From contig CM102289.1 of the NCBI GenBank assembly GCA_046563655.1, positions 7,192,001 to 7,256,000 on the forward strand: a DNA stretch of 64,000 bases, in the 5' to 3' direction. The first letter of the stretch is position 1. Each line of letters begins with the position of its first letter. A program made the translations under genes and the position numbers. Shown one piece after another: positions 37,496 to 63,145 of the stretch. The notes below the pieces were generated by a model. The model saw only the letters and a list, made by a program, of their open reading frames with translations, was not told the DNA's origin and did no database searches. The stretch is from Yuukianura sp. NJ FZ-2021. Lineage: Eukaryota.

Positions 37496-37860
37496 ATGTT
37501 CTGGTTGATAGTTGGTGCTTTTGTTTGCTTCTTCTACGTTTTCAGATATATTCAGAACAAAAATAAAGGATTACCGCCAGGTTAGTTAACTAAATTTAAA
37601 ACTTAAGACAGCAAATTTTGACCTGAACGTAAGAATGACATAACGTAAGGGATTATTTGGATTTTTTAAACTTTTCATTTATAATTTTTAATTTTTATAC
37701 CAATATTTTTAATTTAAAAATAAATATATTTTTAAAAACAAATAAAATATAATTACCATTATTTGGTATTACTATTATTATTATTATTCTTTTATTATTA
37801 TTACATTGAACACCAAAGTGCACAAGTATTCTCGATCTCCAAGATTTAGTTGCTAAGCAT
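37496..37860 (+). pseudogene. Cytochrome P450 relic: exon 1 only, joined to a P450 3'-flank-like sequence
   Basis: MFWLIVGAFVCFFYVFRYIQNKNKGLPPG|GT is near-identical to exon 1 at 40391. No exon 2 follows; 37770-37860 resembles the flank at 42720-42805. Confidence 0.8.
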
Positions 37861-38350
37861 TGTTTAGACACACCCAAAAGTTGATATAAAATGATATTTT
37901 AATCGTAAAAAATCGAAGCGCCGTTTTACCGAATATTCTTCCTCCACTTGTCTAAAGTTCAATTATTGATTTATCAATTATTTAATTATTGATATTCAAT
38001 TATTCAATTTTTCAAGTTCAATTATTGATCTTTAAAAACCCTAAATCTAAACTTTGTTGTTGTTTTTTGTACAGCCCCTATCTCAAAAAAAAGTTTGTTT
38101 AAAAAAATGTGTTCAAAGGGACATAACGACTTTTTTGTAACTTCGAAGCCCTTGACTTTGAATTTTGAAGGTTGAAGTAAATTTCCAAACAAAATTTGAA
38201 TAAAGACATGTCAAATTCTATTTTGAAATAGGTTAGCGTCGTATATTTAAAAATTAATTTAAATTTCGTGCATGTGTCAATAAGCAAGAAGTGTTTAATT
38301 TATTAATGACAACTTATTTTATCATTAGTAAATAATTAATTATTCTTACT

Positions 38351-39529
38351 TTAGTCAATGATTTTAATCAAACCGTTAGACTTATGCCGTTCAGATGCTG
38401 CATAACAACGATTGTTTCCATCAATAAAGGATTCCAAACTATCTAAGAATTTAACTAAATGTGGATCGTATGAAAATTTTTGAAGAAGGGAGTCACGTAA
38501 AACCAAAAAATCGTCGATTTCGTCACTGATGAGGACACACATTTGCTCTACGGCAGTCTCCAGCGGAATACCCTTTTCAACCACTTTGAAAACAACCAAA
38601 TTGTCCATTTCGTTTTTTCCAAATTCGTTTTGCATTCCAAGTAAATCATTCGCGAGTCCACAAATGGAATTGACAAGATCCAGAAGTCTCCGAATAGTTG
38701 AACAGTTTTTGATTCTTCCAGGAAGCTCAGTTTGTCCACTCTCCAAAGTCCAGATAATGCTGGCACCGATATCATAGTAAGATAATGCAATGCGGTATTC
38801 TCTGTAGCATTCTTCCTGAGAAGTGCCGTCAATTGGCGACACAGCATAACGCAGCATGGCATTGAAGTATCGTTGAATTGAAAACTCTAAGTGTCTCATT
38901 CCGAATTGGTATCCAGGATAAAGTTTTTCGTAATCTCGATAAAAATCCCGTAATGAATTGAACAAGAACCGGTAAATTGGAAATGCAGGAACATCTTCGT
39001 ACATTTGAGCTGGGTTCCGAATTAGTTGAAGGAGTCCTTGCGTGGCAGATTCAAGCACTGTGACAGAGACTGTTTCAATTGCATTTTCCATAGCATTATC
39101 CAAAACATATAACCAGTAGATCGGTTTTAGCAACATTTTGGTTTCGGCTGATTCGATATTTGAGAATGGATACAACAGAGGAACGAAACGTGCGACAGTT
39201 TCTACCATTCCGTGGAAAAATTTGGAATCTGTATGGTTTTGAATGAATTTGTCAGTCCATCGACATAAGTATAGCTGTAAGTACTGCTGTTGCTCGGGAG
39301 TGACCTCGTAACGTTGATACCTTGGCTGAATTCGAGGAAATTGACCTTTGACATGAACTGTTCCAAAATGTGGATTTGATAGGATACCAAAATCAAATTT
39401 GATTTTTCCCAATAATGGCTTTGTGCAAAACTCATCTGCAACTGAAAATACAATTTCAACAAATATAAATTTATGAAAATTTATAACATTATGACTGTTA
39501 TCCTTTTTACCTTTCGTTGTGGCAGACAT
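38351..39529 (-). CDS. Microbial-type class I terpene synthase (TPS1); probable 69-nt intron 39442-39510
   Basis: LLYP, WLYVLDNAME (Asp-rich motif variant), YREYR (diphosphate sensor Arg), NDLLGMQNE (NSE/DTE motif), DNLVVFK, ERH at the RY position; about 370 aa. Confidence 0.85.
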   Translation of the reverse strand: MSATTKGKKDNSHNVINFHKFIFVEIVFSVADEFCTKPLLGKIKFDFGILSNPHFGTVHVKGQFPRIQPRYQRYEVTPEQQQYLQLYLCRWTDKFIQNHTDSKFFHGMVETVARFVPLLYPFSNIESAETKMLLKPIYWLYVLDNAMENAIETVSVTVLESATQGLLQLIRNPAQMYEDVPAFPIYRFLFNSLRDFYRDYEKLYPGYQFGMRHLEFSIQRYFNAMLRYAVSPIDGTSQEECYREYRIALSYYDIGASIIWTLESGQTELPGRIKNCSTIRRLLDLVNSICGLANDLLGMQNEFGKNEMDNLVVFKVVEKGIPLETAVEQMCVLISDEIDDFLVLRDSLLQKFSYDPHLVKFLDSLESFIDGNNRCYAASERHKSNGLIKIID

Positions 39530-39649
39530 TTCCCGAGCGTTCTTGAATCTTGAGTTTGTCCGATGTTTTCAATGGTTCAAATAGTTTACAAATAAAAAGT
39601 TGATGAGGACAGACATGTGTGAATAGAATAAAGCGATTGAGACAGGTCG

Positions 39650-39760
39650 AGCTTATATACTAGCTAAGGTTTAAGGTTAAGCTAAGCTCGTTCGTTCAAA
39701 GTGTGGGGTGCTCGATGTCACTTGGGGCAGAAGGTGTTGAGGTCAACAGAGGTCAACTAG
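39650..39760. promoter_or_regulatory. Putative shared TPS1/CYP-A promoter elements: TATA box (minus strand) and a perfect DR4 nuclear-receptor element
   Basis: GTATATAAG on the minus strand at about 39652-39660; AGGTCA-acag-AGGTCA at 39740-39755. Confidence 0.4.
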
Positions 39761-40390
39761 CTTTCGCCTGCCACAAAATCCATATTTTGATCGAGTGAAC
39801 TACGGATTTGGGATTCCTGGGCGCCAAATGACCTGAATTTGGGGGAAATATGGTTCAATTTAGTTTATGGTTTGGTGCTCGTAGTGGTACGGGCTTAAAC
39901 GCTAAACGTCGTGCTCTATTTCCTTAATGAGCGGCCTGAGTTCAGTCACTGTGCAAAAATGGCAAACTTCATTTTGCAGAATTTGATACATGAAAGTTGG
40001 TTTGATCGTATTTGCCAAAATTAACAATCAACCAAATTGCGAATTTTTTGCGAATTGAAGTTTTGAGTTCATTAACGTGCTGATTCAGTTCGTCGACAAG
40101 ACAAATAGAGTTGTGGTATTAGATGCCCGGCTCCCTGTGCCATTGTTGTGAATTCAAGGAGAGTGACGATCGTAACAATTTTTTGGCATTATTTGATTAA
40201 CTTTTTGGTTTAGTTTCCGGACTAGTTTTTAAGAGTGCATTTTTCCCGACATAAACACGATAAAAAAGTTGCTCATTTTCATTTAAGTTCTGACAAGACC
40301 TGCATTTCCTTCATCAATAACACAACTATTTTCATCACAGCTTTGTCACTTTGTTGAAAGGCACCCAGCAGTAATTTTATTGCAGAAATC

Positions 40391-42536
40391 ATGTTCTGGT
40401 TGATAGTTGGTGCTTTTTTTTGTTTATTATTTGTTTTCAGATATATTCAGAACAAAAATAAAGGATTACCACCAGGTTAGTTCTCTTACATTTAAGTGCT
40501 CTTAAATTTAAAACTTACGGCAGCCAATTTTGAACTGAAAGATTGACATAATTTAAAAATGTGTACTTATTTGTTTTTTTTTAAACTGTAATGTTTAGGT
40601 CCGCCTCGCTTTCCGTTGATTGGTTCCTTACCGCACTTATTTTTTGCTGGAGCAAAGGCACCTCCGGAGGCATTGCGCAAACTCGGACTAAAGTATGGAC
40701 CCATCTTCACTGTGGAGATTGGATCCGTACTTTCGTGTAGGTGTTTTATGAAACATTTTGCAAAAAACTTTTCCTAAACTTTGAATCATAGTTGTCATAA
40801 ACGGTTACGAGCTGATGACAAAAATTGCCTTTTCGGAGGATCTCTTGAGCCATTCAGACGAAACGGATGTTTTTTTCGTCGAAAAATCAAAATCAGTTTC
40901 ACTCGGTAAATTATTCCTAAAAAAAAGTATAACTTCTTCATGAATCTTACCAACAGAAGTGTTTGAAAACTTAGGGTTACTGTTTGCCCTTCCTCAATTC
41001 TGGGGCCAGACTCGTCCAGCCTGTCAAAAAATTTTCAAAAAATACGGATTTACTACGAAAAGCAAAACGGAACAGAACGTCATGGAGGAATTTATAGAAT
41101 TTTGTGATGACTTAAAAACTGGATTCAATGAAAATGGAACTTTGCGTATCAAATTGACAAACCAGTTTAACCAACTTTTTTTGAATATTGCTACAACGCA
41201 AATCACTGGGAAGAAATATTTAAGCTCCGACTCACGAACAGAAGTCCTGTTAAAAGCAATGGATGACTTCGCAAAATGTATAGGATTTGGAAGTCATATT
41301 GTTCATCTGTACCCGAAATTGGCTCACAAATTTCCAAAACTTGTGGGATACAATACTGTAAAAACTTTTTGCGACTCATGGAGGCAAATAATTTCTGTAA
41401 GTTTAACAACAAAAGCAATATCTTTTAAGTTTAAAAAAATAAGATAATTTAGTATAATGCTAAAACTAAACTTTTTTAAATAACTTGTTTGAAGGAATTT
41501 ATTCGGGAAGAGCGTGACCAAATGAAAACTCAGTCGGAGCCAGATAACTTTCTAGCTGAATTCTTGCAAAGAATTGAATCCCCTCACAAAAAAAGTTCAA
41601 CAGATGAATTTGTCTATACGCGTAAGTTATTTAAATCTTAACTAAACATAACTTATGTCCATCGTTCTGTTATGATATGAGCTATTTTTTTTATTTAGCG
41701 GAAAACTTGACTTCTATATTACAAGACTTACATTTAGGAGGAACTCAAACGCAGTCCCATATTGTAAAATATTTTATTCGTTTCATGTTGTCATTTCCGG
41801 ATGTCCAAGAGCGTCTTCAAAAAGAAGTTGATGAGGTCATTGGTAAAAACCGTTTGGTCACCTGTGATGACATTCCAAAGTTAGAATTATATTTTACCTA
41901 CAATTCAAACATTACTAATAAGCAGGACTCATAAAAAACAACATTTTTCAGGTTAAGTTATGTTCAAGCGACACTTAACGAAGTATACAGACTTGGTTGT
42001 GCTGCAGTGGCAACTCCAAGGAAGCTTATGAATGACGCGGTTATTGCTGGTTATAAGCTTCCAAAGGTTAGCGAACAAAACAAGCTCAATTGTTTATCAA
42101 AATATTGTGACCTGTTTTTTTTTTTGGTGTTTTGTGCAGGGATCAACCTTAATATTTAACATTTGGGCCGCACACAGAGATTCAACTGTATGGGAAAATC
42201 CATTAGAGTTTAATCCTGACCGATTTTTGTCTGAAGATGGCACAACTTTAGTCAATACTGAAAAAATTGTTGCATTTGGATTTGGTAAAAAATTTAAAAA
42301 ACAGGAATTTTTAACGATTTAAAAATGTATTACTAGTGTATGAAACAATTTCAGGCAAGCGTAGATGTATCGGTGAGCAATTGGCGAGGACGAGTCTCAT
42401 ACTGGGCATAACAACATTGGTTCAACAATTTAGTTTTCATTTGGATCCAGTCACTGGAGTGCCTAGTGAAGACAACGATACCTTTGGATTCACAAGAGAC
42501 ACGCCTCCATTCTACGTCCTCATGCGGAAACGATAA
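40391..42536 (+). CDS. Cytochrome P450 (CYP2 clan), copy A
   Basis: N-terminal anchor + LPPGPPRFPLIG, WGQTR, I-helix [27 protein letters not shown]. Confidence 0.93.
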
Positions 42537-43111
42537 TTGCTGTAAAGCAATTTTTTTATCCAAAAAAATCAATCTAGCATTTCTATCCTTCTCGAATTCG
42601 GAAACGTTGAACTTGATATGAACTTTCTTAACGAGCCGCACTCATGGGCGGACGGTCTTCAATTGCAATTAAGTCTGAATAATAAAAGAATTCCTTTTTT
42701 ATTATTATATAATGTATTATTTTTATTTTTATTATTATTATGTTGAACATAACAAAGCACATAAGTATTCTTACTCTCCAAAAGAAGATTTAGTTGGTAG
42801 CATTGGTTTCTTAGCATTGACAGACTTCATCACCAACTTTTCACCCAGTTGATAATAACAACTCAAGGTTAGCAGGTTAGTTGATCTTTGGACTGTCCTT
42901 GCACTTTAGTTTGCAAACTAGTTTCCAAAAATGAAACTTTTCCGCACTTGCACAAATGTAAAACCAAGCTGTGTTAAAATGTGCTAATAAGTTGCTCATT
43001 TTCGTTTAAGTTCTAACGAAATCTACATTTTCCTCATCAGTAACACAATTATTGTCATCAGAGCGTTGTCAGTTTGTTGAAAAGTTCACTAGTATTTCTA
43101 TTGTAGAAATT

Positions 43112-45267
43112 ATGTTTGGGGTGTTAGTTGGTGTTTTTGTTTGTTTCTTTTACGTTTTCAAATACCTGCTTCAGAACAAAAACAAAGGATTACCGCCAGG
43201 TTAGTTCTGATTGAATTTAAAACTTACGCCAGTCAGTTTTGGCCATGAACGTAACATTGACATAACGTAAAAATGCATGGATTATTTAATTATAAGTTAT
43301 TGGAATTTTTTAACCTGGAATGTTTAGGTCCGCCACGCTTTCCTCTGATTGGTTCCTTGCCGCATCTGTTTTGGGCTGGAGCAAAGACACCTCCAGAGGC
43401 ACTGCGCAAACTCGGACTAAAGTATGGTCCTATCTATACCGTGGAGCTTGGATCCGTCCTCTCATGTAACTGTTATGCTAAATTTTCAAAAAGCAATATA
43501 ATAGCTTTTTTAACTTCATTGTTAGTTGTCATAAACGGTTACGAGCTGATGACAAACATAGGCTTCTCGGAGGATCTCTTGAGCCATTCAGACGAAACGG
43601 ATGTTTTTTTCGTCGAAAAATCAAAATCAGTTTCACTCGGTAAATTATTCCTAAAAAAGTTTATAATTTCTTTATGAATTATGAATCTTACTAAAACTTA
43701 GGGTTACTGTTTGCCCTTCCTCAATTCTGGGGCCAGACTCGTCTAGCCTGTCAAAGAATTTTGAAAAAATACGGATTTGCTACGAAAACCAAAATGGAAC
43801 AAAACATCATGGAGGAATTTATGGAATTTTGTGATGACTTAAAAACTGAATTCGATGAAACTGGAACTTTGCGTATCAAATTGACAAACCAATTTACCCA
43901 CCTTTTTTTTAATATTGCCACAACTCAAATCACTGGGAAGAAATATGTAAGGTCCGACTCGCGAACTGAAGTCCTGTTAAAAGCAATGGATGACTTCGCA
44001 AAAATTGTTGGATTTGGAAGTCATATTGTTCATCTCTACCCGAAATTGGCTCACATATTTCCAAAGCTGATGGGATACGATACTCTAAAAACTGCTTGTG
44101 ATTCGTGGAGGCAAATAACTTGTGTAAGTTTATTAACAAAAGCAAGCTTTTCAGTTTAAAAAATTAGATAATTTTCGATAACTATAATTAGAATTATTTG
44201 TGTAACTTGTTTGAAGGATTTCATTCGGGAAGAGCGTGACCAAATGAAAACTCTCGAGGAACCAGATAATTTTCTAGCTGAATTTTTGCAAAGAATTGAA
44301 TCTCCTGTCAAAAAAAGTTCAACAGATGAATTTATTTATACGCGTAAGTTGTTTTAAATCTTCACTAAACATAATTTTAGTCCATGGTTCTTGTGTACTA
44401 GAACATAATATAGGTCTGTTTTCTATTCAGCGGAGAACTTAACTTCTACACTACAGGACTTACATCTTGGAGGAGCCGAAACACAGGCGCATATTGTGAA
44501 GTTTTTAATTCGATTTCTTGTGTCACATCCGGATGTCCAAGAGCGTCTTCAGAGAGAAGTTGATGAGGTCATTGGTAAAAATCGATTGGTGACCTGTGAC
44601 GACATTCCAAAGTTAGAATTATGTCTTAACCTAAAATTCAAAATTTCTAAAAAAAGCAGAACTCATAAAAAAAAGATTTTTTTCAGGTTAAGTTATGTTC
44701 AAGCGACACTTAACGAAGTATACAGACTTGGCTGTGCTGTAGTGGCAACTCCAAGAAAGCTTATAAATGATGCCGTTATTGCTGGTTATAAGCTCCCAAA
44801 GGTTAACGAACGAAACAGGTCAAAGGTTAATCTAAATATTGTGAACTCTTTTCGTTATTTTTGTGCAGGGAGCAAGCGTAATATTGAGCATTTGGGGCGC
44901 ACACAGAGATTCGACTGTATGGGAAAATCCATTGGAGTTTAACCCTGACCGGTTCTTGTCCGAAGATGGCACAACTTTAGTCAATACTGAAAAAATTGTT
45001 GCTTTTGGATTTGGTAAATTAAAATAAAAAAAACAGGAATTCTTTTTGCAAGAAAAATGTAATTACTATTACGAATAAACAATTTCAGGCAAGCGTAGGT
45101 GTATTGGTGAGCAATTGGCGAGGACGAGTCTCATTCTGGGCGTAACAACATTGGTACAGCTATTTAGTTTTCATTTGGATCCAGTCACTGGAGTGCCTAG
45201 TGAAGACGATATCTTTAGATTCACAAGAGACACACCTCCATTCTACGTCCTAATGCGCAAAAGATAA
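43112..45267 (+). CDS. Cytochrome P450 (CYP2 clan), copy B
   Basis: Same exon structure as copy A; I-helix [25 protein letters not shown]. Confidence 0.92.
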
Positions 45268-45512
45268 TTACTGGAGAACAATTTTTTTTAACCCAAAAAA
45301 GTTGTTCTACTAGTATTACTCAAGGTTACATGACAACGAAAAGTTAAATTTCTTGATTTTGAATTTATATGAATGAAAAAAAAACATGTTACTCAACCTG
45401 TTAAAGAAAACCAAAGTCAACAAACCTTGAGTATTTCTAATCGTCTGTTCGTGTTGTAAGTAAAGTCTAAGGTCAATTTTTTGTTTTGAATTGTTGGATA
45501 CATAAGATTGAT

Positions 45513-45830
45513 CGACTTCTTTTCAGCAAAATTTAAAACTGATAATGTTCATACCAACATACAAGAAAATTTTTTCCAACTTTTACCAAAATTGAATCAT
45601 GACCAAATTGATTATATGTCTAAAGTCATTTCATCTGAGGAAATCAAAATTGCAATTTCTCAACTGAAGAATGATACCTGTCCCGGTCTTGACGGGATTT
45701 CAAGTGAATTTATTAAAATATTCATACCAGAATTTACTAAAATATTCGAATGGTTATGGAGCGAATGCTTAATTCGCGATGAAATGCCAGACTCTCTTAA
45801 ATGTGGACTTGTCACCCTAATTTACAAAAA
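45513..45830 (+). mobile_element. Internal fragment of an L1/Tx1-like LINE ORF2, inserted with an 11-bp direct repeat
   Basis: ISSEEIKIAISQLKNDTCPGLDGISSEF..GLVTLIYKK; ATAAGATTGAT at 45502-45512 and 45831-45841; empty homologous site near 57224. Confidence 0.8.
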
Positions 45831-46100
45831 ATAAGATTGATATATTGATACGAAACATCGGCTTCCATTGAGGAGGCCTACTCTTTTCTTATCCTAAGTT
45901 AAGCATTACTGCAAATGGTCTTTGATGTGACTTTTGAGTAAGCAACATCACAAAAAAAGACTTGGAAAACAACAAACTTTTCTTACAAACGCCTAATAAA
46001 AGAGCCCAGATAAAAAATTCAGCTCCAGGAATCAAGTAATATTTGGTGTAAAATATACTCAAAAGTTAGTCAAAATTGGACAAGTGTGAAAATTTTTACA

Positions 46101-48246
46101 ATGTTGTATTTACTTCTGGTGGCTCTTCTGCTAACTTTCGTAGTGAAGTTAATATGGCAGTACACTTACTGTCAACTCCCACCAGGTAAAAATTTTAAGA
46201 GTAAAAATTTAAGCAAATTCGGGAATTGAATTGAAGTACTTTGTTTAGGTCCTCCAAGATTTCCACTGATTGGATCTTTGTTGCATGTGTACCTTGCAGA
46301 CAGGAAGTCTCCAGCAGAAGCACTTGCTAAACTGTCTAGGCGATATGGTCCGATTTTTACAATTCAAAATGGATCAGTTATGAACGGTAGTTTACTAAAA
46401 AGTGTACTTTCTAGATGCAAAATTTCCAAACCACACTATTTTGTTTAATTGTTGAATATTTTCAGTCGTGATAAACAGTTTTGAGATGTTAACGCAAGTC
46501 GGAAATTCGGAAGATCTTTTGAGTCGGATAAATGAATCTGACCTTTGGTTTTTGTCAAAAAACAATTTCGTTCCAATCGGTAACAAAGTTTTGTCTAAGA
46601 AAAATTGAAAATGTATGTTTAACAACATTTTTTTGGTTGGTAAAAATCGGATTTGGAAACTTTTTAGGTTTGCTATTTTCCCTGCCCGATTTCTGGCAGA
46701 AAACCCGCTCTGCATGTCAAAAACTTTTTCGAAAACATGGATTCAATGCTAGAACCAAACTGGAGCAAACTGTTATGGAACAATTTATGGAATTTGTTGA
46801 TGAACTCAAGGAAAAATTTGAAAATGGCGAACTTGTGCTGGAATTGACCCATCAATTCGACAGTATTTTTTTCACTATTGTCACTACTCTAATCACTGGC
46901 AAAAAGTATGCTAGTTCCGACAAACGAATGGAAACTGCTCTCAACGCCCTTGACCATTACGCCAAATCCATGCACTTTAGTGGTCACATTTCACACCTCT
47001 ACCCTAATCTGGTTCCGATGTTTCCGAACTTCACTGGACTGACTAAGCTCCGAGACGCCTGCCATAACTGGAACCTTACGGTCGACGTGAGTTAGTATTT
47101 TAAGCCTGAACCACTAAAAAAAACTTTTTCTTTCATAAATAATTTTTTTAGGATTTCATTGATCAAGAACGGGAGTATTTACAACTCAACTCAGAGCCCA
47201 ACAATTTCTTGGCAGAATTTTTACAGCATGTAGACACTCCAAGCGAGCTGAGTGAGCGGGATAAAGAAGTTTACACATGTAAGTTTGTAACCACAATCAC
47301 ATTAAATATTTAACTACAAAAATTATTTTATTACTTAAATAATAATTTTTCACATTTCAGACGCAAATTTAGTATCTACGTTTCAAGACCTACAACTGGG
47401 TGGAACAGAAGGATTGTCTCACCTAGTAAAATTTTTCATCAAATTTTTGTTACCGCGGCCACACGTACAGCAACGACTTCAGGAGGAAGTGGATGAAGTT
47501 GTTGGAAAATATACCCTCGTAACCACAAAAAATTTACCGAGGTAATACCTACAGCGTTGAAAAATATTTTGCAACATTTTGTAAGAATTCGTCAATTTTG
47601 TGTCTGTGTTTGAAGATTGGTTTACGTACAAGCAACAGTGGAAGAAGTTCTGAGGTAAAAGATTCAGATTTTGGTTTACAATTAAAATAAAATCTTAAAG
47701 GTCTAAGTTGAACTCTAAATTCATAGGTTGGGATGCGCCGTAATGATGACGCCTCGGAGACTGTTGAAAGATTGTGTAATCGCTGGCTACAAGCTGCCCA
47801 AGGTAAGAGGTTAATGTCAACAGTCACTTAATCAACATACTTACCTTGAAATTAATTTCAAAGGGAATGATGTTGACGCTTAACATTTGGGGAGGGAGTA
47901 CAGATCCAGCTGAATGGAAAAATCCTAAAGACTTTGACCCCAGCCGATTCCTGTCGCAAGATGGCTCTACTCTGATCAACACGGAAAAAGTCATGGCATT
48001 TGGATTTGGTAAATCAAAAATAAAAATAAAAATAAGTTTTCATGCAACTTTCCTAAATAAAATTTAGGCAAACGGAAATGTATTGGAGATCATCATGCGA
48101 AAACAAGTCTGGCACTTGTGATAGCAACACTTGTACAACAGTTTAGTTTCCATTTGGATCCAGTTACTGGACCGCCCTCTGACGACGACATTTTCGGATT
48201 TATCAGAGACACTATTCCATTCTCTGTACTTATTCGAAAAAGATAA
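46101..48246 (+). CDS. Cytochrome P450 (CYP2 clan), divergent copy C
   Basis: LPPGPPRFPLIG, WQKTR, I-helix GGTEGL, EVLR, FDPSRF, FGFGKRKCIGD; one extra intron after the K-helix. Confidence 0.92.
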
Positions 48247-51358: not shown

Positions 51359-51510
51359 TTGAAATCCAAAATCAATTGTTAACACAATGAAAATCAGATT
51401 CTCAGTTTTTAAGATGCTATTTTTTAATGGTTCCTCAAGGATTTTGTTTTAGTTCAAATTGCTTAAGAATGGAAGAATGGAAGAAACGGTCCGGCCGGTT
51501 TTTATTCGGT

Positions 51511-52290
51511 TTAGCACTTTTCTTTCTGGTATTTCACGGTTTCAAAAAACATCGGTCCATCTTTGTCGGCCAATTTCGCATCGCCGAATCCAATGTCTTT
51601 AAAGTGTTTCAAAATCTTCTTCTTGAATTTTTTGTCACCTGACTTGTCCTCAGTCGTTCCAACCCAGAAGAATTGGTCATACCCAAATACGCAATTGTAA
51701 CCAGCCATGTACGTCTTATTATCCGTCTTCGTCACAACAAAGTTAGCACCATCTACAAACATGCACAAGTCGTTTTTTTTAGATTTTCGTGAATTTGGGC
51801 TGGTAGCAATTACAATATAATTGCATATATGGAGAAATACCAATGTCTTACATGGTTTTTGGGCTGATTTTCCGGGAAGGAGTACACAACCTCCGTGTCC
51901 AGCCGGGGAATAAGTGCATTCGAAATCAGAAGAAAATGGCTTCTTGTCCATGTTACCACTTAGCGTGTAGCACACCGTCTTTGGAACCGTTCGACCCTTA
52001 AATGGCTGCCATTTTTCATCACCATCCTCGCAGTTGGTGCAGTCTGAGTGAAATGGAATGTGGAATATTGCGCTTCGAAGCTATAAAAAATATTAGACAT
52101 CATAATTTTTATAAATGGTTTAAAATTTTGAAGGGAACTGAAGGTTTACGATTTAGAAAGAATAGAATTGTAAATTTCTTACAAACTCGTCTGCGACAGC
52201 AGCCTTTTTCTTGGCTTCAATGCAATCCCTCATTCCGTCACTCCATGGCAATACGACGGCCAACAGTCCAAGCGCAATTGCAAACATCAT
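51511..52290 (-). CDS. Secreted Cys-containing lipocalin-like protein, three exons
   Basis: Signal peptide MMFAIALGLLAVVLPWSDG; GT-AG introns at about 52080-52182 and 51753-51851; FVVTKTDNKTYMAGYNC resembles the lipocalin TDY motif; terminal Cys. Confidence 0.6.
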
Positions 52291-53310
52291 TGTTGAATTC
52301 TTTCCTTTCCGGCTGCAAGTCTTTGCTTCCGATCAAAGAAATAAGACTGATGCTAAACGACAACTTCGAGCGCGTACTTAAAGCTTCGTTCGAACAATAG
52401 AAAATAGAGAAGCGGATTTCATCAAGGCTAAACTTATGAAAAACTTAGAAAATATTCTGAGGCGTTAATTAAAATACAATTGAAACGGTTAAGTTAGGTA
52501 ATTTAACCTTGACATGAGTCATATTCAACAAACAACTTTACCGCTGTATTACGATAAGGGAATATTTCCCAACGTCACTTAATTGGATTAAGTTTTCGGC
52601 GCTTAATTTCTACAAAAAAAAATCAAAGTTTTTCCACTTCCGCACAAATTCAAAAAAGATATTCGGCGAATAAGCAAGCGACAGCAGCTAATCAAATCAG
52701 GCGAACCATAATGTAAAGCAAAACTAAGTCCTACTGTTGTTTAGTTTACTAACTGCGCATAACCACTCTGTTTAAGAACAGAATAAGCAACAATGGACTC
52801 ATCTTTCATTACACATTTATGAAATATAACTATTTTCTCAAAATTTGGCAATTTTTTTATGTTTGAAGATTAAAGTTCTTAGGTAAGTCATTTGTATTTC
52901 GATTATTCGATATTATTAATCGTATTAATCCACTCAACAGACGCTGGGATAATATTAACTTATCCGATTATGGCGGTATAGTTGAATTTGACTTGCGTCA
53001 ATTTTTATTTTAACGCCTTCCCGAAAATTTTCTAAGTCCTTGATAATTTAGCCTTGTTGAATTCCGTTTCTTCATTGCGTCATTGTTGGAACCTCATTGT
53101 TTGAACGGGGCTTTATTACAGCGCTCTTTGTCGCTTAGCGGTCTTATTTCTTTGTTCGGAAACTAAGACCTTCAACAAAATTTAAGCGGAAAAGTTTCCA
53201 CTAACCTTTTCATCTTACATTAATGTGAACAAAGGTATCTCACGGTTAGTGCTTTATAGTAATTTCTATAACACCTTTATTTCCTGCAAAACTATCATTT
53301 ACTTAAATAA

Positions 53311-53985
53311 ATGTTTGGTTTGTCTCCAACTTTAGAAATCATAATGAAAGTCGCACGGGCCACACAAAGGAAATTGGAGTTTGATTTTGGAAGATTTTGT
53401 GATCCAATATCTGGAGAGTCAGTTCAAGTCAAAGGAGAATTCCCAATAATTTCATCCCGCTTTGAAAGGATACTTGTACCGGAAGATGTGGAATCCAGTC
53501 GGAAGTTTCTCCAAATTTGGGTGGAACAATTTTTTAAACCGACTTTAAATCCTAAATATATCGAAGATATTGCTAACACGGCTGCAATATTTGTAATCCT
53601 CATTTATCCATTCCAACCTATCGGCAGTCCCAAATTCAATTTGTGTCTTAAGTGGTTCGTCTTCCTATGGATCATAGATGACACTCTGGAATCATGTATT
53701 AGCAACAAAATCATTTCTGAACAAGTATTTACCAACGGTACAACATATCTGTTAGAAATACTTTCAAAAACTACTACAAGTTTCGACGAAGAAAAAGTAG
53801 AAAACTTTCCCTCGTTTCAAGGATTGTTCAATGCTTTTTCTGACATTGTTCAAAACCTTGAAGTATTCGATTCTGCCGACGGAACGAAATTGCATCGATT
53901 TTACTTGTTTTTAAAAGAGTATTTTGAAACTCTGCCTTGCCGGAATAAGATTGATGGCGATCTACCTGAAGAAACGTTTCGGAAA
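53311..53985 (+). pseudogene. Second microbial-type terpene synthase (TPS2), 3'-truncated
   Basis: Homologous to TPS1 (EFDFG..VQVKGEFP..LIYPF) with intact WIIDDTLE; the frame runs into repeat sequence after EETFR, before the NSE motif. Confidence 0.8.
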
Positions 53986-54235
53986 AATTTAGGTTTACCA
54001 CCATAGCTCCGATTTTGATGGTAATTTTTTTGAAAATAGTTGAGTTGAAATATGAAAAAAAAATTTCCGGAAATGAAATTTTGAAAAAAAAAATTTTCAA
54101 TTTTTTTTTGGCTCCGATTTAGCTCAAAATTGGTTTCCCGACTTAAGTCATGCTAAACACGAATATGAAATAATTTTTGTTCTAGGATGACATAACCTGA
54201 GACGAAATCAGTATTGCAAATTGAAACTTTAAAAA
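53986..54235. repeat. Non-autonomous repeat fragment that truncates TPS2 (also at about 59905-59945 and 60025-60315)
   Basis: AGGTTTACCACCATAGCTCCGATTTTGATGG occurs three times; the longer copy ends in the GC hairpin CCGCGCCTTCGGCGCGG near 60295-60311, suggestive of a Helentron/Helitron terminus. Confidence 0.55.
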
Positions 54236-54249
54236 TCCTACACTTTTAA

Positions 54250-54670
54250 TACACTTTGCTGGTCTGGAAATTGTTGTACGGCATAACGCGGAACAAGCGG
54301 TACCTTGCTGGCCGTGTACTACGTGTCATGATCGAACATGTATGTTTCTTAGGTGTAGTGAATTAAACATTAAGCAAATTACAATTATTAAAATTTATAG
54401 GTTAATATAGTAATTATAGTAGTAAAATTATAGTAATGCGGCTAGTCTGGGTTTTTCAAAACGTCTTATAATTCACCAGTTAGTCACAACAGTAAATGCT
54501 AAAGTGACGCTGGGTACTGGACTACTGGAGCTTTTGTGGACATTAAGAATAAAGGCTAGCCTCATACGGTGTGGTTCACAGAACTTAACCGCTAGTGGCT
54601 TGGGAGTATGATTGATGACGGTCTGGCATATGGTAGGAGGACATTCTAAAGACAATGGAATCATTGTTCA
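54250..54670 (+). pseudogene. Degenerate GK5 fragment
   Basis: CGGAACAAGCGGTACCTTGCTGGC..CGTGTCATGA matches 28582-28625; AAAGTGACGCTGGGTACTGGA and CATTCTAAAGACAATG match 29145-29300. Confidence 0.8.
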
Positions 54671-54862
54671 ATACAGTTCATAATAACGACTCAATGTTAA
54701 TTGATTTATGAAGTGACGTTGTACTTTAGTCGTCAAACTAGGTTCCAAGGGTGAAACTTTTTCCAGACTCTATATTTTCTTCATCTCTAGTACAATTTTT
54801 GTCATCAAAGGCTTGTCAGGTTGTTGAAAGGTGCTCGGCAGTTTATTTTTATTGCTGAAATC

Positions 54863-57114
54863 ATGTTCTGGTGGTTGGTATGTGTTTTTATTTGCTTCAT
54901 CTACGTTTTTCGATATCTCATTCTGAACAAAGGATTACCGCCAGGTTAGTTCTGATTAAATTTAAAATTTATGGTTAGGTTTAGGTTCACTTTTGCCTTC
55001 ACTTTTGACCATGAACGTTTTTAGGAATGTTCGGCATAACGTAGAAATTGCATGGATTATTTGGATTTCTTAAACTGGAATCTTTAGGTCCGCCACGCTT
55101 TCCTCTGGTTGGTTCCTTGCCGCACCTGATTTTGGCTGGAGCAAAGTCGCCTCCGGAGGCACTGCGAAAACTCGGACTAAAGTATGGTCCGATCTACACT
55201 ATGGAAATTGGATCCGTACTTTCGTGTAGGTGTTATGTTAAATTTTCAAAAAAACTTAAAGTATGAAACTTTTCCTAAACTTTGAATCATAGTTGTCATA
55301 CATGGTTACGAGCTAATGACAAAAATTGCCTTCTCGGAGGATCTCTTGAGCCGTTCAGACGAAACGGATGTTTTTTTCGCCGAAAAATCAAAATCAGTTT
55401 CACTCGGTAAATTATTCAGAGAAAAAATGGATAATTTCTTTATAAATCTTACTAAAAGAATTGTTTGAAAACTTAGGCTTACTATTTGCCCTTCCTCAAT
55501 TCTGGGGTCAGACTCGTCCAGCCTGTCAAAGAATTTTGAAAAAACATGGATTTACTGCGAAAAGTCAAATGGAACAAAACATCATGGAGGAATTTATCGA
55601 ATTTTGTGATGACTTAAAAAATGGGTGCGATGAAAATGGAACTTTGCGTATCAAACTGACAAACCAATTTACCCAACTTTTTTTGAATATTGCTACAACG
55701 CAAATCACTGGAAAAAAGTATTTAAGCTCCGACTTGCGAACAAAAAGCCTTTTAGAAGCAATGGATGACTTCGCAAAATCTATAGGATTTGGAAGTCATA
55801 TTGTTCATCTGTACCCGAAATTGGCTCACAAATTGCCAAAACTTGTGGGATACAATACTGTAAAAACTTTTTGCGACTCATGGAGGCAAATAACTTCTGT
55901 AAGTTTAACAACAAAAGCAATCTTTTAAGTTTAAAACATAAGATATCTAGTATAATGCTTTAAACTTATTTGAATAACTTGTGTGCAGGAATTTATTCGG
56001 GAAGAGCGTGACCAAATGAAAACTCAGTCGGAGCCAGATAACTTTCTAGCTGAATTTTTGCAAAGAATTGAATCCCCTGATAAAAAGAGTTCAACAGATG
56101 AATTTATATATACGCGTACGTTGTTTCTAATCTGAATTGTCTTAACTATTTTAACACATTTTTTGTACATGGTTCTGGTATATTATATTTTGCGTCTGTT
56201 TTTTTTTATTCAGCGGACAACTTGACTTGTATACTTCAAGACTTACAGTTAGGAGGAACCGAAACGCAGGCGCAAATTGTGAAATATTTTATTCGATTCA
56301 TGTTGTCATTTCCGGATGTCCAAGAGCGTCTTCAAAAAGAAGTTGATGAGGTCATTGGTAAAAATCGATTGGTGACCTGTGATGACATTCCCAAGTCAGA
56401 ATTTTATCTTACCCACACAATTCAAAAATTACTAATAAGCAGGACGCATCAAAAACTATATTTTTGCAGGTTAAGTTATGTTCAAGCGACAATTAACGAA
56501 GTATACAGACTTGGTTGTGCTGTAGTGGCAACTCCAAGAAAGCTTATGAATGATGCCGTTATTGCTGGTTATAAGCTTCCAAAGGTTAACCAAACCTTTC
56601 CATTAAACTTCCAAAGCAAGATGTCAAAAGTTAATCCAAATATTGTGACCTGTTTTCTTGGTTTTTGTGCAGGGATCAACGGTAATATTTAACATTTGGG
56701 CTGCACACAGAGATTCGACTGTATGGAAAAATCCATTGGAGTTTAACCCTGATCGGTTCTTGTCCGAAGATGGCACAACCTTGGTGAATACTGAAAAGAT
56801 TGTTGCATTTGGATTTGGTAAATTAAAATTTAAAAATTTAAAAATATATTAGTAAAGTAAATGAAAATTAAAAAAAAAACAGAAAATTTTATCAATTTAA
56901 AAATGTATTAAAAGGGTATTAAACAATTTCAGGCAAGCGTAGATGTATCGGTGAGAAATTGGCGAAGACGAGTCTCATTCTGGGCATAACAACATTGGTT
57001 CAACAATTTAGTTTTCATTTGGATCCAGTCACTGGAGTCCCTAGTGAGGATGATACCTTTCGATTCACAAGAGGCACGCCTCCATTCTACGTCATCATGC
57101 GCTCTAGAGAATAA
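54863..57114 (+). CDS. Cytochrome P450 (CYP2 clan), copy D
   Basis: I-helix [26 protein letters not shown]-terminus ..VIMRSRE* results from a small deletion relative to copy E. Confidence 0.92.
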
Positions 57115-57294
57115 AATGTTTTGCCAAAAGACTACTCTAATTAATATTTCTAATCTTCAGTGCGTGTTGTAAGCAAAGTCTAACGTCAATTCTTTTTTGA
57201 ATTGTTCATTGCGCACAATCTACATAAGATTGATGTGCTGATACTAACAGGGCTTCCTGTTAAGTTTTCACCAGTTTCTAACGAAACAAACCAC

Positions 57295-57720
57295 GCATGA
57301 ATTGGAAATGGCTTCGCTTACCCTCACACTGCTTTGTGTTGCTGGTTTCTTTCGTGGCAGTAATGTGCTGACAAGAGCGATTAGCTGGGGTTTGACCAAA
57401 TTTGGAAATCATGATGCAAAACAAGCTGGAGAGTTTTCCTATGTTCCAATTTTACCGATTTCATCAAAAATAAGCTGTTTTGTACTGTATTGTTAACAAA
57501 AAGTTTCGAACAGAGTATTAGTTTTGATACTGCTCATGTTTCCCGGACTGTCGTCTAGTTTTGAAAAATATTTGGAAGAGACACCGGAACAAGTCAAAGT
57601 GTCCAATTTTATCTGGTCCAAGAGGTGTTGTTGCGATAGTAAAAGAAAAATTGGAACACAAAATTACAAAGCACGTTGGAAATCAAAATTAAAGAAGAAT
57701 TGGAAACCAAAAGTAACAAT
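57295..57720 (+). pseudogene. Frameshifted 3' fragment of the 49938 GPCR
   Basis: HELEMASLTLTLLCVAGFF..NHDAK..KKFRT matches 50955-51358, with frameshifts. Confidence 0.85.
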
Positions 57721-58200
57721 GAACTGAAAGATTGAAAGTTCGTTAACACAATGAAAAGTAAATTTTCTGCATGTTTTTTAATATGTTTCATCCGGAATCT
57801 TTAATTGAGTGTAAAATGGTTGAGAATTTACACGGTTTTCAGTACCATACAGAGTTCTAGGTAAAATATCGCGGAAAGTTTTGTACTTTTAATTTATTTG
57901 AAAATACATGTTTTATTACCACATATATCGGTGACGATTGAAATCGCAGTTGGTGCAGTCTGAGTGAAATGGAATGTGGAATATTGCGCTTCGAAACTAT
58001 AAAAAATATTAGACATCATAATTTTTATAAATGGTTTAAAATTTTGAAGGGAACTGAAAGTTTACGATGTAGAAAGAATAGAATTGTAAATTTCTTACAA
58101 ACTCGTCTGCTACAGCAGCCTTTTTCTTGGGTTCAATGCAATCTCTCATTCCGTCACTCCATGGCAATACGACGGCCAACAGTCCAAGCGCAATTGCAAA

Positions 58201-58914
58201 TAAACGGTTGTAAACCGGTGTACGTAAGTAGCGAAGATAGCGCCCCCCCGGGGGGAGTGGGGGTGGGTTCCCCCCACTATCCCGCCCCACCCCGGGGGAG
58301 AGGGGGTGGGTTCCCATGGGGGAGTGGAGATGGGGTTCCCCCTGGGGGAGTGGAGATAGGTTCCCCCGGGGGAGTGGAGATGGGGTTCCCCGGGGGAGTG
58401 CAGATGGGGTTCAACGGGGGAGTGGAGATGGGGTTCCCCGGGGGAGTGCAGATGGGGTTCAACGGGGGAGTGGAGATGGGGTTCCCCGGGGGAGTGGAGA
58501 TGGGTTCACCCCGGGTTAGTTGAGATGGGTTCACCCGGGGGAGTGAAGATGAGTTGCGCCCTACCAGGGCCTTAAAGCGAAAAAAGTTGACCTTTGACCC
58601 GGAAGGGGGTCACTTGGGGTCAAGTGATGTACACAAAAGTTGTTGGTCTTGAAGAGACGAACAACTTTTGTATACGCCATTTTCCATGTTACCGGGGATG
58701 AAACCGGTTGACCTTGACCTTTGACCCGGAAGGAGTTGACCCACCGGGATGATATTCAATAGTGAATATCCGCCCGACCTCCGGTGTTCACTAGTGAAAA
58801 CAGATCCCGGAAATGTTGAGCCGTTTCCGAGATAATTGCCGCCGGCGGCCGGCCAGACAGACAGACAGACAGACAGCCAAGGTCGATGCATAAAGTAGCT
58901 TCGCTACTTAATAA
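58201..58914 (-). mobile_element. Helentron-associated non-autonomous element (HINE/DINE-1-like)
   Basis: Subterminal inverted repeats AAGTAGCGAAG (58226-58236) / CTTCGCTACTT (58899-58909), terminal hairpin CGGTT-GTA-AACCG, (GACA)n microsatellite at about 58855-58875; absent from the paralogous site at 52284. Confidence 0.8.
58310..58550 (+). repeat. G-rich minisatellite, unit of about 21-24 bp (GGGGAGTGGAGATGGGGTTCCCC)
   Basis: About ten tandem imperfect copies inside the HINE. Confidence 0.9.
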
Positions 58915-60329
58915 CGTCATTGTTGAATTGTTTCCTTTCCGCCTGCAGGTCTTTACTTCCGATCAAAGGAATAAGACTGATGCTAAACGACAACTTCGAG
59001 CGCGTACTTAAAAGCTTCGTTCGAACAATAGAAAATAGAGAAGCGGATTTCATCAAGGCTAAACTTATGAAAAACTTAGAAAATATTCTGAAGCGTTAAT
59101 TAAAATACAATTGAAACGGTTAAGTTAGGTAATTTAACCTTGACACGAGTCATAATCAACAAACAACTATACCGCTGTATTACGATAAGGGAATATTTCC
59201 CAACGTCACGTAATTGGATTAAGTTTTCGGCGCTTAATTTCTACAAAAAAAATCAAAGTTTTTCCACTTCCGCACAAATTCAAAAAAGATATTTGGCGAA
59301 TAAGCAAGCGACAGCAGCTAATCAAATCAGGTGAACCATAATGTAAAGCAAAACTAAGTCCTACTGTTGTTTAGTTTACTAACTGCGCATAACCACTCTG
59401 TTTAAGAACAGAATAAGCAACAATGGACTCATCTTTCATTACACATTCATGAAATATAACTATTTTCTCAAAATTTGGCAATTTTTTTATGTTTGAAGAT
59501 TAAAGTTCTTAGGTAAGTCATTTGTATTTCGATTATTCGATATTATTAATCGTATTAATCCACTCAACAGACGCTGGGATAATATTAACTTATCCGATTA
59601 TGGCGGTATAGTTGAATTTGACTTGCGTCAATTTTTATTTTAACGCCTTCCCGAAAATTTTCTAAGTCCTTGATAATTTAGCCTTGTTGAATTCCGTTTC
59701 TTCATTGCGTCATTGTTGGAACCTCATTGTTTGAACGGGGCTTTATTACAGCGCTCTTTGTCGCTTAGCGGTCTTATATCTTTGTTCGGAAACTAAGACC
59801 TTCAACAAAATTTAAGCGGAAAAGTTTCCACTAACCTTTTCATCTTACATTAATGTGAACAAAGGTATCTTACGATTAGTGCTTTATAGTAATTTCGGTA
59901 TAATTGAGGTTTACCACCATGGCTCCGATTTTGATGGCAATTTTTTTCAGGAGACAAACCGAACATTTAGTTAAGTAAATGATAGTTTTGCAGGAAATAA
60001 ATTTGGCGTTATAGAAATTACGGAAAAATTTAGGTTTACCACCATAGCTCCGATTTTGATGGTAATTTTTTTGAAAATAGCCTACACCCCCTGAGTTGAA
60101 ATATGAAAAAAAAATTTCCGGAAATGAAATTTTGAAAAAAAAAAATTTTCAATTTTTTTTTGGCTCCGATTTAGCTCAAAATTGGTTTCCCGACTTAAGT
60201 CAAGTATGCTAAACACGAATATGAAATAATTTTTGTTCTAGGATGACATAACCTGAGACGAAATCAGTATTGCGAACTTTAACCAAACCTAACACCGCGC
60301 CTTCGGCGCGGGAAAACATCTTACAGCAA

Positions 60330-60710
60330 AAATAACGCGGAACAAGCGGTACCTTGCTGGCCGTGTACTACGTGTCATGAGCGAACATGTATGCTTCTTA
60401 GGTGTAGTGAATTAAACATTAAGCAAATTACAATTATTAAAATTTATAGGTTAATGTAGTAATTATAGTAGTAAAATTATAGTAATGCGGCTAGTCTGGG
60501 TTTTTCAAAACGTCTTATAATTCACCAGTTAGTCACAACAGTAAATGCTAAAGTGACGCTGGGTACTGGAGCTTTTGTGGACATTAAGAATAAAGGCTAG
60601 CCTCATGCGGTGGTTCACAGAATTTAACCGCTAGTGGCTTGGGAGTATGATTGATGACGGTCTGGCATATGGTAGGAGAACATTCTAAAGACAATGGAAT
60701 CATTGTTCAA
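60330..60710 (+). pseudogene. Second degenerate GK5 fragment (duplicate of 54250-54670)
   Basis: Near-identical to 54283-54670. Confidence 0.8.
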
Positions 60711-60915
60711 TACAGTTCATAATAACGACTCAATGTTAATTGATTTATGAAGTGACGTTGTACTTTAGTCGTCAAACTAGGTTCCAAGGGTGAAACTTTT
60801 TCCAGACTCGATATTTTCTAATCTATATTTTCTTCATCACTAGTACAATTTTTGTCATCAAAGGCTTGTCAGGTTGTTGAAAGGTGCTCGGCAGTTTATT
60901 TTTATTGCTGAAATC

Positions 60916-63145
60916 ATGTTCTGGTGGTTGGTATGTGTTTTTATTTGCTTCATCTACGTTTTTCGATATCTCATTCTGAACAAAGGATTACCGCCAGGTT
61001 AGTTCTGATTAAATTTAAAATTTATGGTTAGGTTTAGGTTCACTTTTGCCTTCACTTTTGACCATGAACGTTTTTAGGAATGTTCGGCATAACGTAGAAA
61101 TTGCATGGATTATTTGGATTTCTTAAACTGGAATCTTTAGGTCCGCCACGCTTTCCTCTGGTTGGTTCCTTGCCGCACCTGATTTTGGCTGGAGCAAAGT
61201 CGCCTCCGGAGGCACTGCGAAAACTCGGACTAAAGTATGGTCCGATCTACACTATGGAAATTGGATCCGTACTTTCGTGTAGGTGTTATGTTAAATTTTC
61301 AAAAAAACTTAAAGTATGAAACTTTTCCTAAACTTTGAATCATAGTTGTCATACATGGTTACGAGCTAATGACAAAAATTGCCTTCTCGGAGGATCTCTT
61401 GAGCCATTCAGACGAAACGGATGTTTTTTTCGCCGAAAAATCAAAATCAGTTTCACTCGGTAAATTATTCAGAGAAAAATTGGTTAATTTCTTTATAAAT
61501 CTTACTAAAAGAGTTGTTTGAAAACTTAGGCTTAGCATTTGCCCTTCCTCAATTCTGGGGTCAGACTCGTCCAGCCTGTCAAAGAATTTTGAAAAAACAT
61601 GGATTTACTGCGAAAAGTCAAATGGAACAAAACATCATGGAGGAATTTATCGAATTTTGTGATGACTTAAAAAATGGGTGCGATGAAAATGGAACTTTGC
61701 GTATCAAACTGACAAACCAATTTACCCAACTTTTTTTGAATATTGTTACAACGCAAATCACTGGAAAAAAGTATTTAACCTCCGACTCGCGAACAAGAAG
61801 CCTTTCAGAAGCAATGGATGACTTCGCAAAATCTATAGGATTTGGAAGTCATATTGTTCATCTCTACCCAAAATTGGCTCACAAATTTCCAAAACTTGTG
61901 GGATACAATACTGTAAAAACTGTTTGCGACTCATGGAGGCAAATAATTTCTGTAAGTTTAACAACAAAAGCAATCTTTTAAGTTTAAAAAAATAAGATAA
62001 TTTAGTATAATGCTAAAACTAAACTTTTTTAAATAACTTGTTTGAAGGATTTCATTCGGGAAGAACGTGACCAAATGAAAACTCTGTCGGAACCAGATAA
62101 CTTTCTAGCTGAATTTTTGCAAAGAATTGAATCCCCTGATAAAAAGAGTTCAACAGATGAATTTATATATACGTGTACGTTGTTTCTAATCTGAATTGTC
62201 TTAACTATTTGTACATTTTTTGTACATGGTTCTGGTATATTATATTTTGCGTCTGTTTTTTTTATTCAGCGGACAACTTGACTTGTATACTTCAAGACTT
62301 ACAGTTAGGAGGAACCGAAACGCAGGCGCAAATTGTGAAATATTTTATTCGATTCATGTTGTCATTTCCGGATGTCCAAGAGCGTCTTCAAAAAGAAGTT
62401 GATGAGGTCATTGGTAAAAATCGATTGGTGACCTGTGATGACATTCCCAAGTCAGAATTTTATCTTACCCACACAATTCAAAAATTACTAATAAGCAGGA
62501 CGCATCAAAAACTATATTTTTGCAGGTTAAGTTATGTTCAAGCGACAATTAACGAAGTATACAGACTTGGTTGTGCTGTAGTGGCAGCTCCAAGAAAGCT
62601 TATGAATGATGCAGTTATTGCTGGTTATAAGCTTCCAAAGGTTAACGAACGCAAGATGTCAAAAGTTAATCCAAATATTGTGACCTGTTTTCTTGGTTTT
62701 TGTGCAGGGATCAGCGGTAATATTTAACATTTGGGCTGCACACAGAGATTCGACTGTTTGGGAAAATCCATTGGAGTTTAACCCTGATCGGTTCTTGTCC
62801 GAAGATGGCACAACCTTGGTCAATACTGAAAAGATTGTTGCATTTGGATTTGGTAAATTAAAATTTAAAAATTTAAAAATATATTAGTAAAGTAAATGAA
62901 AATTAAAAAAAAACAGAAAATTTTATCAATTTAAAAATGTATTAAAAGGGTATTAAACAATTTCAGGCAAGCGTAGATGTATCGCTGAGAAATTGGCGAG
63001 GACGAGTCTCATTCTGGGCATAACAACATTGGTTCAACAATTTAGTTTTCATTTGGATCCAGTCACTGGAGTGCCTAGTGAGGATGATAGCTTTCGATTC
63101 ACAAGATATACGCCTCCATTCTACGTCATCATTCGCAAAAGATAA
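60916..63145 (+). CDS. Cytochrome P450 (CYP2 clan), copy E
   Basis: Near-identical to copy D; heme motif FGFGKRRCIAE; ends ..VIIRKR*. Confidence 0.92.

Follow-up and report, generated by a model that had tools for sequence, protein, structure and literature searches.

A 64,000-nucleotide stretch of the genome of Yuukianura sp. NJ FZ-2021 (contig CM102289.1, positions 7,192,001 to 7,256,000, hereafter the window) carries a resident microbial-type class I terpene synthase gene, TPS1, which lies head to head with the first of five cytochrome P450 (P450) genes, CYP-A to CYP-E. The physical clustering of terpene synthase (TPS) and P450 genes is confirmed: the five P450s lie within 26 kb, and the two synthase sequences present, TPS1 and a fragment named TPS2, stand 861 and 856 bp from a P450 start codon. 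A first-pass annotation had interpreted this locus as a terpenoid biosynthetic cluster. What stands of that interpretation is the resident microbial-type cyclase, the clan-2-like P450s and their adjacency; the second synthase/P450 pair does not stand, because its synthase is a dead fragment. We give about even odds to the view that the adjacency results from the landing sites of duplications and gene fragments in a P450 bloom and not from a selected pathway, chance being somewhat the likelier of the two. The locus spans 37155-63281 and also contains a P450 relic, a TSPO gene, a weakly recognizable seven-transmembrane (7TM) gene and a lipocalin-like gene, so that the whole inventory given earlier was located.

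TPS1 is a single, intronless open frame of 392 amino acids (aa) on the minus strand (38351-39529). The protein matches the Pfam family Terpene_syn_C_2 (PF19086) with an E-value of 3.9e-14 and 53.3 bits, and the profile check proposed in the first-pass annotation thus gave a score above the cut-off of 23.7 bits. An alignment-based model (predicted local distance difference test, pLDDT, 88.5) shows the full all-alpha class I cyclase fold. With this model, the best Foldseek match is 7zrn, a 10-epi-cubebol synthase (E 3.3e-9), with TM-scores (template modelling) up to 0.83, and VIA-align against bacterial and fungal class I cyclases gives a Z-score of 31.5 and a root-mean-square deviation (rmsd) of 2.6 Å over 313 residues. 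The solved structures nearest to TPS1 are bacterial. The sesqui- and diterpene synthases among them (7zrn, CyS 7y50, and selinadiene synthase 4okm) share with TPS1 the fold (Z 31.2-31.5, rmsd 2.6-2.7 Å, 296-313 residues) and the metal-binding architecture, but they are only 15-19% identical to it, and TPS1 differs further in being encoded in an animal genome, in the replacement of the second Asp of the first motif, and in the Gly in the middle of its NSE triad, which is shared by 24 of 51 clade members. A specific tie to 2-methylisoborneol synthase was considered and rejected: this enzyme is absent among 46 sequence matches and ranks 19th by fold (Z 29.7). The claim of an intact, microbial-type class I synthase gene is therefore borne out by the Pfam match, the fold and the complete frame.

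The residency of this gene in the animal genome is equally plain. P450 sequence occurs on both sides of TPS1 within one contig that contains no N, and an AATAAA signal lies 46 nt beyond the stop codon. The GC content at third codon positions (GC3) of TPS1 is 0.35, against 0.36-0.41 in the P450 genes, and the codon-usage correlation is 0.80. Because GC3 and codon use match those of the intron-bearing P450s on either side, microbial contamination is very unlikely, and we regard contamination or misassembly as a far-fetched explanation of TPS1, even if the absence of introns and the bacterial origin of the nearest solved relatives would fit it. The named relatives of TPS1 are animal genes, and the absence of introns is common among these: 125 of 277 springtail synthase genes (45%) are intronless, as calculated from the 152 with an intron given in the available text of PMC13638087.

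The active-site motifs of TPS1 were counted in a 51-sequence alignment of TPS1 and its relatives. The Asp-rich motif reads DNxxE (D144-N145-A-M-E148). Its first Asp is invariant (51/51), and the second position is Asp in 49 sequences and Asn in the two others, TPS1 and the distant match P0053; all four of the closest metagenome loci have DD. The NSE-type triad is formed by N294, G298, and E302. N294 is kept in 49/51 sequences and the adjacent D295 in 50/51, the G298 column is Ser in the 27 sequences where it is not Gly, and the E302 column shows Glu in 34 and Asp in 15. The Arg sensor R246 is kept in 44/51 and R381 in 48/51, with RH replacing the RY pair (the H382 column is Tyr in 44 sequences and His in four). 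Other class I synthases mutated at the second Asp usually keep reduced activity, and TPS1, judged from its residues, has probably remained active, with a change in kinetics or products.

The criteria of PMC11665903, as given in the available part of that paper, are a DDxxD motif, an NSE/DTE motif and a length of at least 250 aa. Of the canonical class I features, TPS1 has the NSE triad, the Arg sensor and, in the form RH, the RY pair, and it lacks the Asp-rich DDxx(D/E) motif; under strict application of those criteria it would not count as intact. This bears on the idea that TPS1 is no longer a cyclase, D145N having disabled or repurposed it while the frame survives for some other reason or because it is young. 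The near-absence of Asn at this position among the relatives and the DD of all four closest loci are consistent with such a loss, as are the choice of the arthropod survey to take only DDxxD-bearing genes as intact (PMC11665903, available part) and the inactivity of ScTC4 despite the presence of all its motifs (PMC13638087, available part). We nevertheless find it improbable, since the invariant D144 is present, E148, N294, D295, E302, R246, and R381 are all retained, a 392-codon open frame at 36% GC would not be expected from a dead gene, and the predicted structure keeps the full fold at high model confidence.

The closest relatives of TPS1 were sought by searching 1.84 billion representatives exhaustively with a profile, which returned only 81 matches at E ≤ 0.001; a word-index homologue search with TPS1 returned no match. 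The best profile matches are 34-36% identical to TPS1 and come from metagenome contigs. Among 20 match clusters looked up, three carry organism names, and all three are Folsomia candida proteins. In a quick LG+G4 tree of 52 rows, TPS1 and TPS2 are sisters (86 in the Shimodaira-Hasegawa-like approximate likelihood ratio test, SH-aLRT) and share a clade of 10 rows (SH-aLRT 95) with Folsomia XP_035702665; this clade is nested in one of 15 rows (SH-aLRT 98), where all three named Folsomia sequences are found. The phylogeny suggested by the first-pass annotation thus places TPS1 with Folsomia, in a tree whose rows include only these three named sequences and none from the bacterial, fungal, and mite reference sets.

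TPS1 is, on this sequence evidence, a divergent new member of the springtail microbial-type synthase family and not a new kind of animal gene. The weight that the first-pass annotation gave to the locus presupposed that such genes were new in this animal group, which is superseded by work already in print. Canonical terpene synthases with active enzymes were reported from Allacma and Folsomia (AfTPS and FcTPS; PMC11665903, 2024), and 277 synthase genes were counted in 21 of 26 springtail genomes, on average 13 per species, 55% of them with an intron (PMC13638087, 2026); the Sinella enzymes, of which ScTC1-5 were studied, accept farnesyl diphosphate (FPP) to geranylfarnesyl diphosphate (GFPP) (PMC13638087). 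These statements follow the available parts of the two papers. TPS1 shares with the springtail synthases the Pfam family, the single alpha-domain fold and the clade with the Folsomia candida sequences, and, like 45% of them, it is intronless in a family with several divergent paralogues per genome (PMC13638087, same part). It differs in sequence identity, which is no higher than 25% with the named Folsomia proteins and 31-38% with its nearest relatives, in having DNxxE where the characterized enzymes have DDxxD, and in having RH where most have RY. A further difference concerns the genomic neighbourhood: in the available texts, supplements aside, neither paper considers P450 genes next to the synthases, and the word 'P450' appears 0 times in PMC13638087 and three times, at least once in a passage on gene transfer, in PMC11665903.

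As the first-pass annotation had claimed, the five P450 genes are complete; their frames encode 500-502 aa, and their introns have canonical GT-AG splice sites. The gene models comprise CYP-A (40391-42536, nine exons, 502 aa), CYP-B (43112-45267, nine exons, 502 aa), CYP-C (46101-48246, 10 exons, 500 aa), CYP-D (54863-57114, nine exons, 501 aa) and CYP-E (60916-63145, nine exons, 500 aa). All are on the plus strand, with spacers of about 0.6-0.8 kb within A-B-C and wider ones around the duplicated units. Six of seven exon pieces scanned score above the Pfam p450 cut-off (three of four from CYP-A and all three from CYP-C). The exception, CYP-A exon 4 taken alone, had no match in Pfam, PDB or the word-index search, and a search of language-model features returned only 'P450'. 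CYP-A has an N-terminal anchor, a PPGP hinge, the ExxR motif and the haem loop FGFGKRRCIG. The haem loop FxxGxRxCxG is found in CYP-A to CYP-D; in CYP-E, it ends in Ala instead of Gly. CYP-A, B, D, and E are mutually 84-95% identical (86% between A and B, 95% between D and E), and CYP-C is 54-56% identical to the other four; an additional intron, without counterpart in them, interrupts its ExxR region (47542-47726). The best solved-structure matches of two P450 exons are CYP2B/2E1/2C/2A/2R1/2D6, CYP1A/1B, CYP17, and CYP21, which fits the earlier attribution to the CYP2 clan and gives a lead that the five P450s are clan-2-like.

The synonymous divergence (dS) amounts to about 0.3 in comparisons among A, B, and D/E, and to 0.033 for the D/E pair. 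The ratio of nonsynonymous to synonymous divergence (dN/dS) is 0.20-0.27 for the older pairs and 0.68 for D/E. Given a dN/dS of 0.20-0.27 at a dS of about 0.3, CYP-A, B, D, and E are functional and under purifying selection. The array looks like a young tandem bloom in an unstable region. Lineage-specific tandem P450 blooms occur in arthropods, and the locus resembles them in that four of five genes are 84-95% identical, in their single orientation, in the presence of young duplicates, and in the interspersed fragments and relic. It differs from them in that a synthase gene of foreign origin is embedded in the array and faces its first member head to head.

The second synthase sequence, TPS2 (53311-54006, plus strand), is the 5' fragment of a terpene synthase gene, with 231 aa encoded in its open frame. 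Over 208 residues it shares 29% identity with TPS1 (E 1e-25), aligning with TPS1 residues 42-244, and it was recognized through TPS1 and its relatives, as its match to Terpene_syn_C_2 is at E 0.31 and 11.2 bits. The fragment keeps about 222 TPS codons with the motif DDTLE (DDxxE) and lacks the Arg sensor, the NSE triad and the RY pair. The TPS reading ends near 53975, and the last nine codons and stop are unrelated sequence common to the sister unit described below. A C-terminal TPS half was sought at 53900-55300, where the best hit, apart from TPS2's own tail, had an E-value of 0.14. TPS2 is thus a dead, recent fragment. It is not a recent copy of TPS1, which the 29% identity rules out.

TPS2 lies in the first of two copies of a unit of about 6 kb. 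The first copy occupies 52028-57233 and the second, 94-98% identical in self-blastn, 57944-63281 (plus strand). The second copy has neither the stretch from 53263 to about 53975 nor the lipocalin-like gene body, and the right junction of TPS2 falls at a TTTCGG common to both copies. On the simplest interpretation, the first unit captured part of a synthase gene after the D/E duplication (dS 0.033). Alternatively, the stretch may have been lost from the second unit, which would need a coincidence of breakpoints. The stop codon of TPS2 lies 856 bp before the CYP-D start codon on the same strand, so that the earlier statement that each synthase sits about 1 kb from a P450 start holds for the distances, but the second distance is that of a dead fragment, in a duplicate unit of recent origin. 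Since TPS2 is such a fragment, whether captured or lost, its proximity to CYP-D is no evidence for functional pairing.

Other gene pieces are scattered in the locus. Besides TPS2, we observe a P450 exon 1, a 7TM last exon, a lipocalin-like exon 1 and a piece of an FGGY kinase gene. The P450 exon 1 belongs to the relic (37155-37648, plus strand), which consists of a 5' flank, an intact first exon of 29 codons starting at ATG 37496, an intact donor GT and the first 70 bp or so of intron 1 before the homology to other P450s breaks off at 37648; in self-blastn it is 77-86% identical to the 5' ends of CYP-A and CYP-B. The 7TM piece (57295-57712, plus strand) is a duplicate of the last exon, 79% identical to 50956-51371. 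The carbohydrate-kinase piece, 170 bp long and 75% identical to its source 25 kb upstream (29134-29300), is found in both units (54500-54700 and 60539-60707), from which it follows that fragments move about locally. The second unit alone contains a 24-bp tandem repeat of 10.8 copies (58290-58551), open in several frames and rich in Gly and Pro. With regard to the relic, splicing of its exon 1 (37496-37582) to CYP-A exon 2 (from 40599) would leave TPS1 antisense and nested in an alternative first intron of 3 kb; the use of this exon as an alternative CYP-A first exon is pure speculation.

From these observations, we propose that the locus is a young, unstable tandem array of endoplasmic reticulum-anchored, clan-2-type P450 genes. 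TPS1, a resident synthase of the springtail clade, stands at the array edge head to head with the first P450, and one of the most recent duplicate units encloses TPS2, the dead 5' remnant of another synthase. TPS1 has most likely kept the activity of a Mg2+-dependent class I cyclase and would ionize a prenyl diphosphate by means of D144/E148 and the N294/E302 triad, with properties presumably changed by D145N. It would make its terpene without need of the neighbouring P450s, which purifying selection would maintain as ordinary monooxygenases.

The rival view is that the locus is a true terpenoid cluster, in which TPS1 would make the scaffold, one or more neighbouring P450s would oxidize it (CYP-A foremost, by way of a bidirectional promoter shared with TPS1), the lipocalin-like protein would carry the product, and the P450 duplicates would diversify the tailoring. 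We consider this possible but rather doubtful. The completeness of the TPS1 frame, its host-like codon use and nearby poly(A) signal, and the purifying selection on the P450s are all in keeping with it, and the transfer of P450 and synthase genes from soil microarthropods into fungus gnats is in its favour too, although the available part of that report gives no evidence on linkage (PMC12051294). On the other side, TPS2 is a fragment, TPS1 carries DNxxE, and the P450 5' flanks are alike in self-blastn with or without a synthase upstream, the homology of the CYP-A 5' region to the other flanks beginning only at 40249-40304. The scanned parts of the window contain no recognizable prenyltransferase, dehydrogenase, or acyl- or methyltransferase. 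We also count it against a pathway that the terpenes known from springtails are mostly unoxidized cuticular hydrocarbons.

Several points weigh, in turn, against a chance origin of the adjacency. The best is the divergent layout of TPS1 and CYP-A, the start codons being separated by an 861-bp spacer (39530-40390), since such a layout often goes with shared regulation; the spacer is, by inference only, a candidate shared promoter region. The secreted lipocalin-like protein could carry a hydrophobic product. Two synthases that are only 29% identical, within one 26-kb array, are more than one random landing would give, unless the parent of TPS2 is local. More of the locus lies beyond the window end, which comes 855 bp after CYP-E; the next unit seems to start at 63277 (63277-63574 in self-blastn), and the P450 array probably continues. 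Finally, there is animal precedent. Scesa et al. (2022) reportedly described octocoral terpene gene clusters. In octocorals, terpene synthase and P450 genes form clusters (PMC11784711, available part), which share with the present locus the animal genome, the microbial-like class I cyclase and the nearby P450s. Following the same part of that paper, the octocoral P450s were shown to act on the cyclase product, whereas those described here are known from their genes alone, are near-identical recent duplicates, and are accompanied by no other tailoring enzyme class that we could see.

We also looked at whether the linkage is found elsewhere. A metagenome scan with a three-sequence alignment as query, a 14-sequence alignment being too divergent, gave four loci with the closest TPS1 relatives (31-38% identical), all from one metagenome. 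A P450 gene beside the synthase was found in none of the four (0/4), with flanks of only 8 bp to 4.9 kb: 3.1 and 0.7 kb in L001, 0.2 and 2.1 kb in L002, 0.2 and 4.9 kb in L003, and 0.5 and 0.008 kb in L004. The absence counts against a conserved pathway, but short flanks from a single metagenome make these P450-free loci weak evidence, and to that extent they do little for the chance explanation. The closest relative, 35% identical to TPS1, is encoded on the minus strand of L001 (542-1576), a eukaryote-looking contig with a GC content of 38.5%. On this contig, 1.5 kb upstream of the synthase and divergent from it, a plus-strand gene (3087-4166) encodes a homologue of bacterial geranyl diphosphate (GPP) 2-C-methyltransferase (E 4.5e-72 to PDB 3vc1) with an extra hydrophobic N-terminal region. 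This pair of sequences points to the possible production of C-methylated terpenes, of the 2-methylisoborneol type, by some soil animal. No GPP-methyltransferase-like sequence is present in the 64-kb window. A literature search, with subscription journals and supplements outside its scope, found no paper on a GPP methyltransferase in Collembola and none on synthase-P450 linkage in arthropods.

The frequency with which such adjacency would arise by chance can be approximated. Springtail genomes contain 100-250 P450 genes. Taking this range together with 13 synthases per springtail (PMC13638087) and 28,734 genes (PMC5490193), as given in the available parts of both papers, a back-of-envelope calculation gives at least one synthase abutting a P450 in about 9-20% of genomes. 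Some synthase-P450 adjacency is therefore expected by chance, given about 13 synthases and large P450 families per genome, and the window itself was picked from a very large scan. The boldest version of the pathway idea, a first arthropod terpenoid cluster in which an acquired DNxxE cyclase shares a bidirectional promoter with a P450 array whose duplicates diversify the oxidation, with a lipocalin-like carrier, seems to us slightly more doubtful still than the general one.

Microbial-type terpene synthases in springtails are now established, and the locus adds to them a concrete pair, TPS1/CYP-A, as well as a metal-binding motif in which D is naturally changed to N. Should the pairing prove functional, gene clusters around a foreign cyclase would have arisen independently in arthropods, and the locus would be a new variant of the octocoral-type animal cluster. 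Otherwise, it serves as a warning that some adjacency is to be expected by chance. Beyond this locus, the pair bears on how springtail terpenes are tailored and on whether arthropods, like octocorals, assemble pathway clusters around genes acquired by transfer.

The lipocalin-like gene (51514-52290, minus strand) has two exons and encodes a 225-aa protein with a hydrophobic, signal-like N-terminus, as judged by eye. In language-model features, the protein resembles lipocalin/VDE clusters (0.92, with 183 of 256 features shared), the ten best all being of the lipocalin clan; it had no Pfam match at E ≤ 0.01, and a single-sequence fold was unusable (pLDDT 34).

The TSPO and 7TM genes interrupt the array between CYP-C and CYP-D, and neither has a known part in terpenoid synthesis. 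The TSPO gene (48418-49166, ends approximate, minus strand) consists of four exon pieces, two of which match Pfam TspO_MBR (E 6.1e-15 and 9e-16), in agreement with its first identification. The divergent, G-protein-coupled receptor-like 7TM gene (49938-51361, ends approximate, plus strand) is made of three open reading frame (ORF) pieces; its match to 7tm_1 (E 1e-4, 22.3 bits) is under the cut-off of 30.5 bits, and its match to Srt has an E-value of 1.3e-3.

The window has a GC content of about 36%, compared with 37.5% in F. candida (PMC5490193, available part), and its GT-AG introns are short (55-143 bp), in line with a eukaryotic origin. This GC content, the grouping of TPS1 with Folsomia and the two foreign-looking genes described below jointly indicate a springtail or something closely related. 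A sugar-transporter exon matched only insect sequences, at about 30% identity, in a word-index search. An ORF at 45490-45831 has no Pfam match and no likeness to the ORF at 24420-27272 of a non-LTR retrotransposon (long interspersed nuclear element, LINE). This element (23595-27272, plus strand) has a 950-codon frame for endonuclease and reverse transcriptase that is apparently whole, with a frame of 274 codons ahead of it. Two further genes of the window may be compared with TPS1 in terms of origin. An intron-bearing gene at 10979-12477 (plus strand) encodes TrAA12-like domains (a fungal-type, pyrroloquinoline quinone-dependent oxidoreductase) and may be of foreign origin. At 979-2415 (plus strand), an intronless frame of 478 codons shows strong matches to glycosyltransferase domains of the bacterial GT4/GT1 type (Glycos_transf_1, E 1.7e-40). 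Its codon use is less host-like than that of TPS1 (r = 0.62 versus 0.80), and this gene, which lies among intron-bearing animal genes, was likely acquired horizontally.

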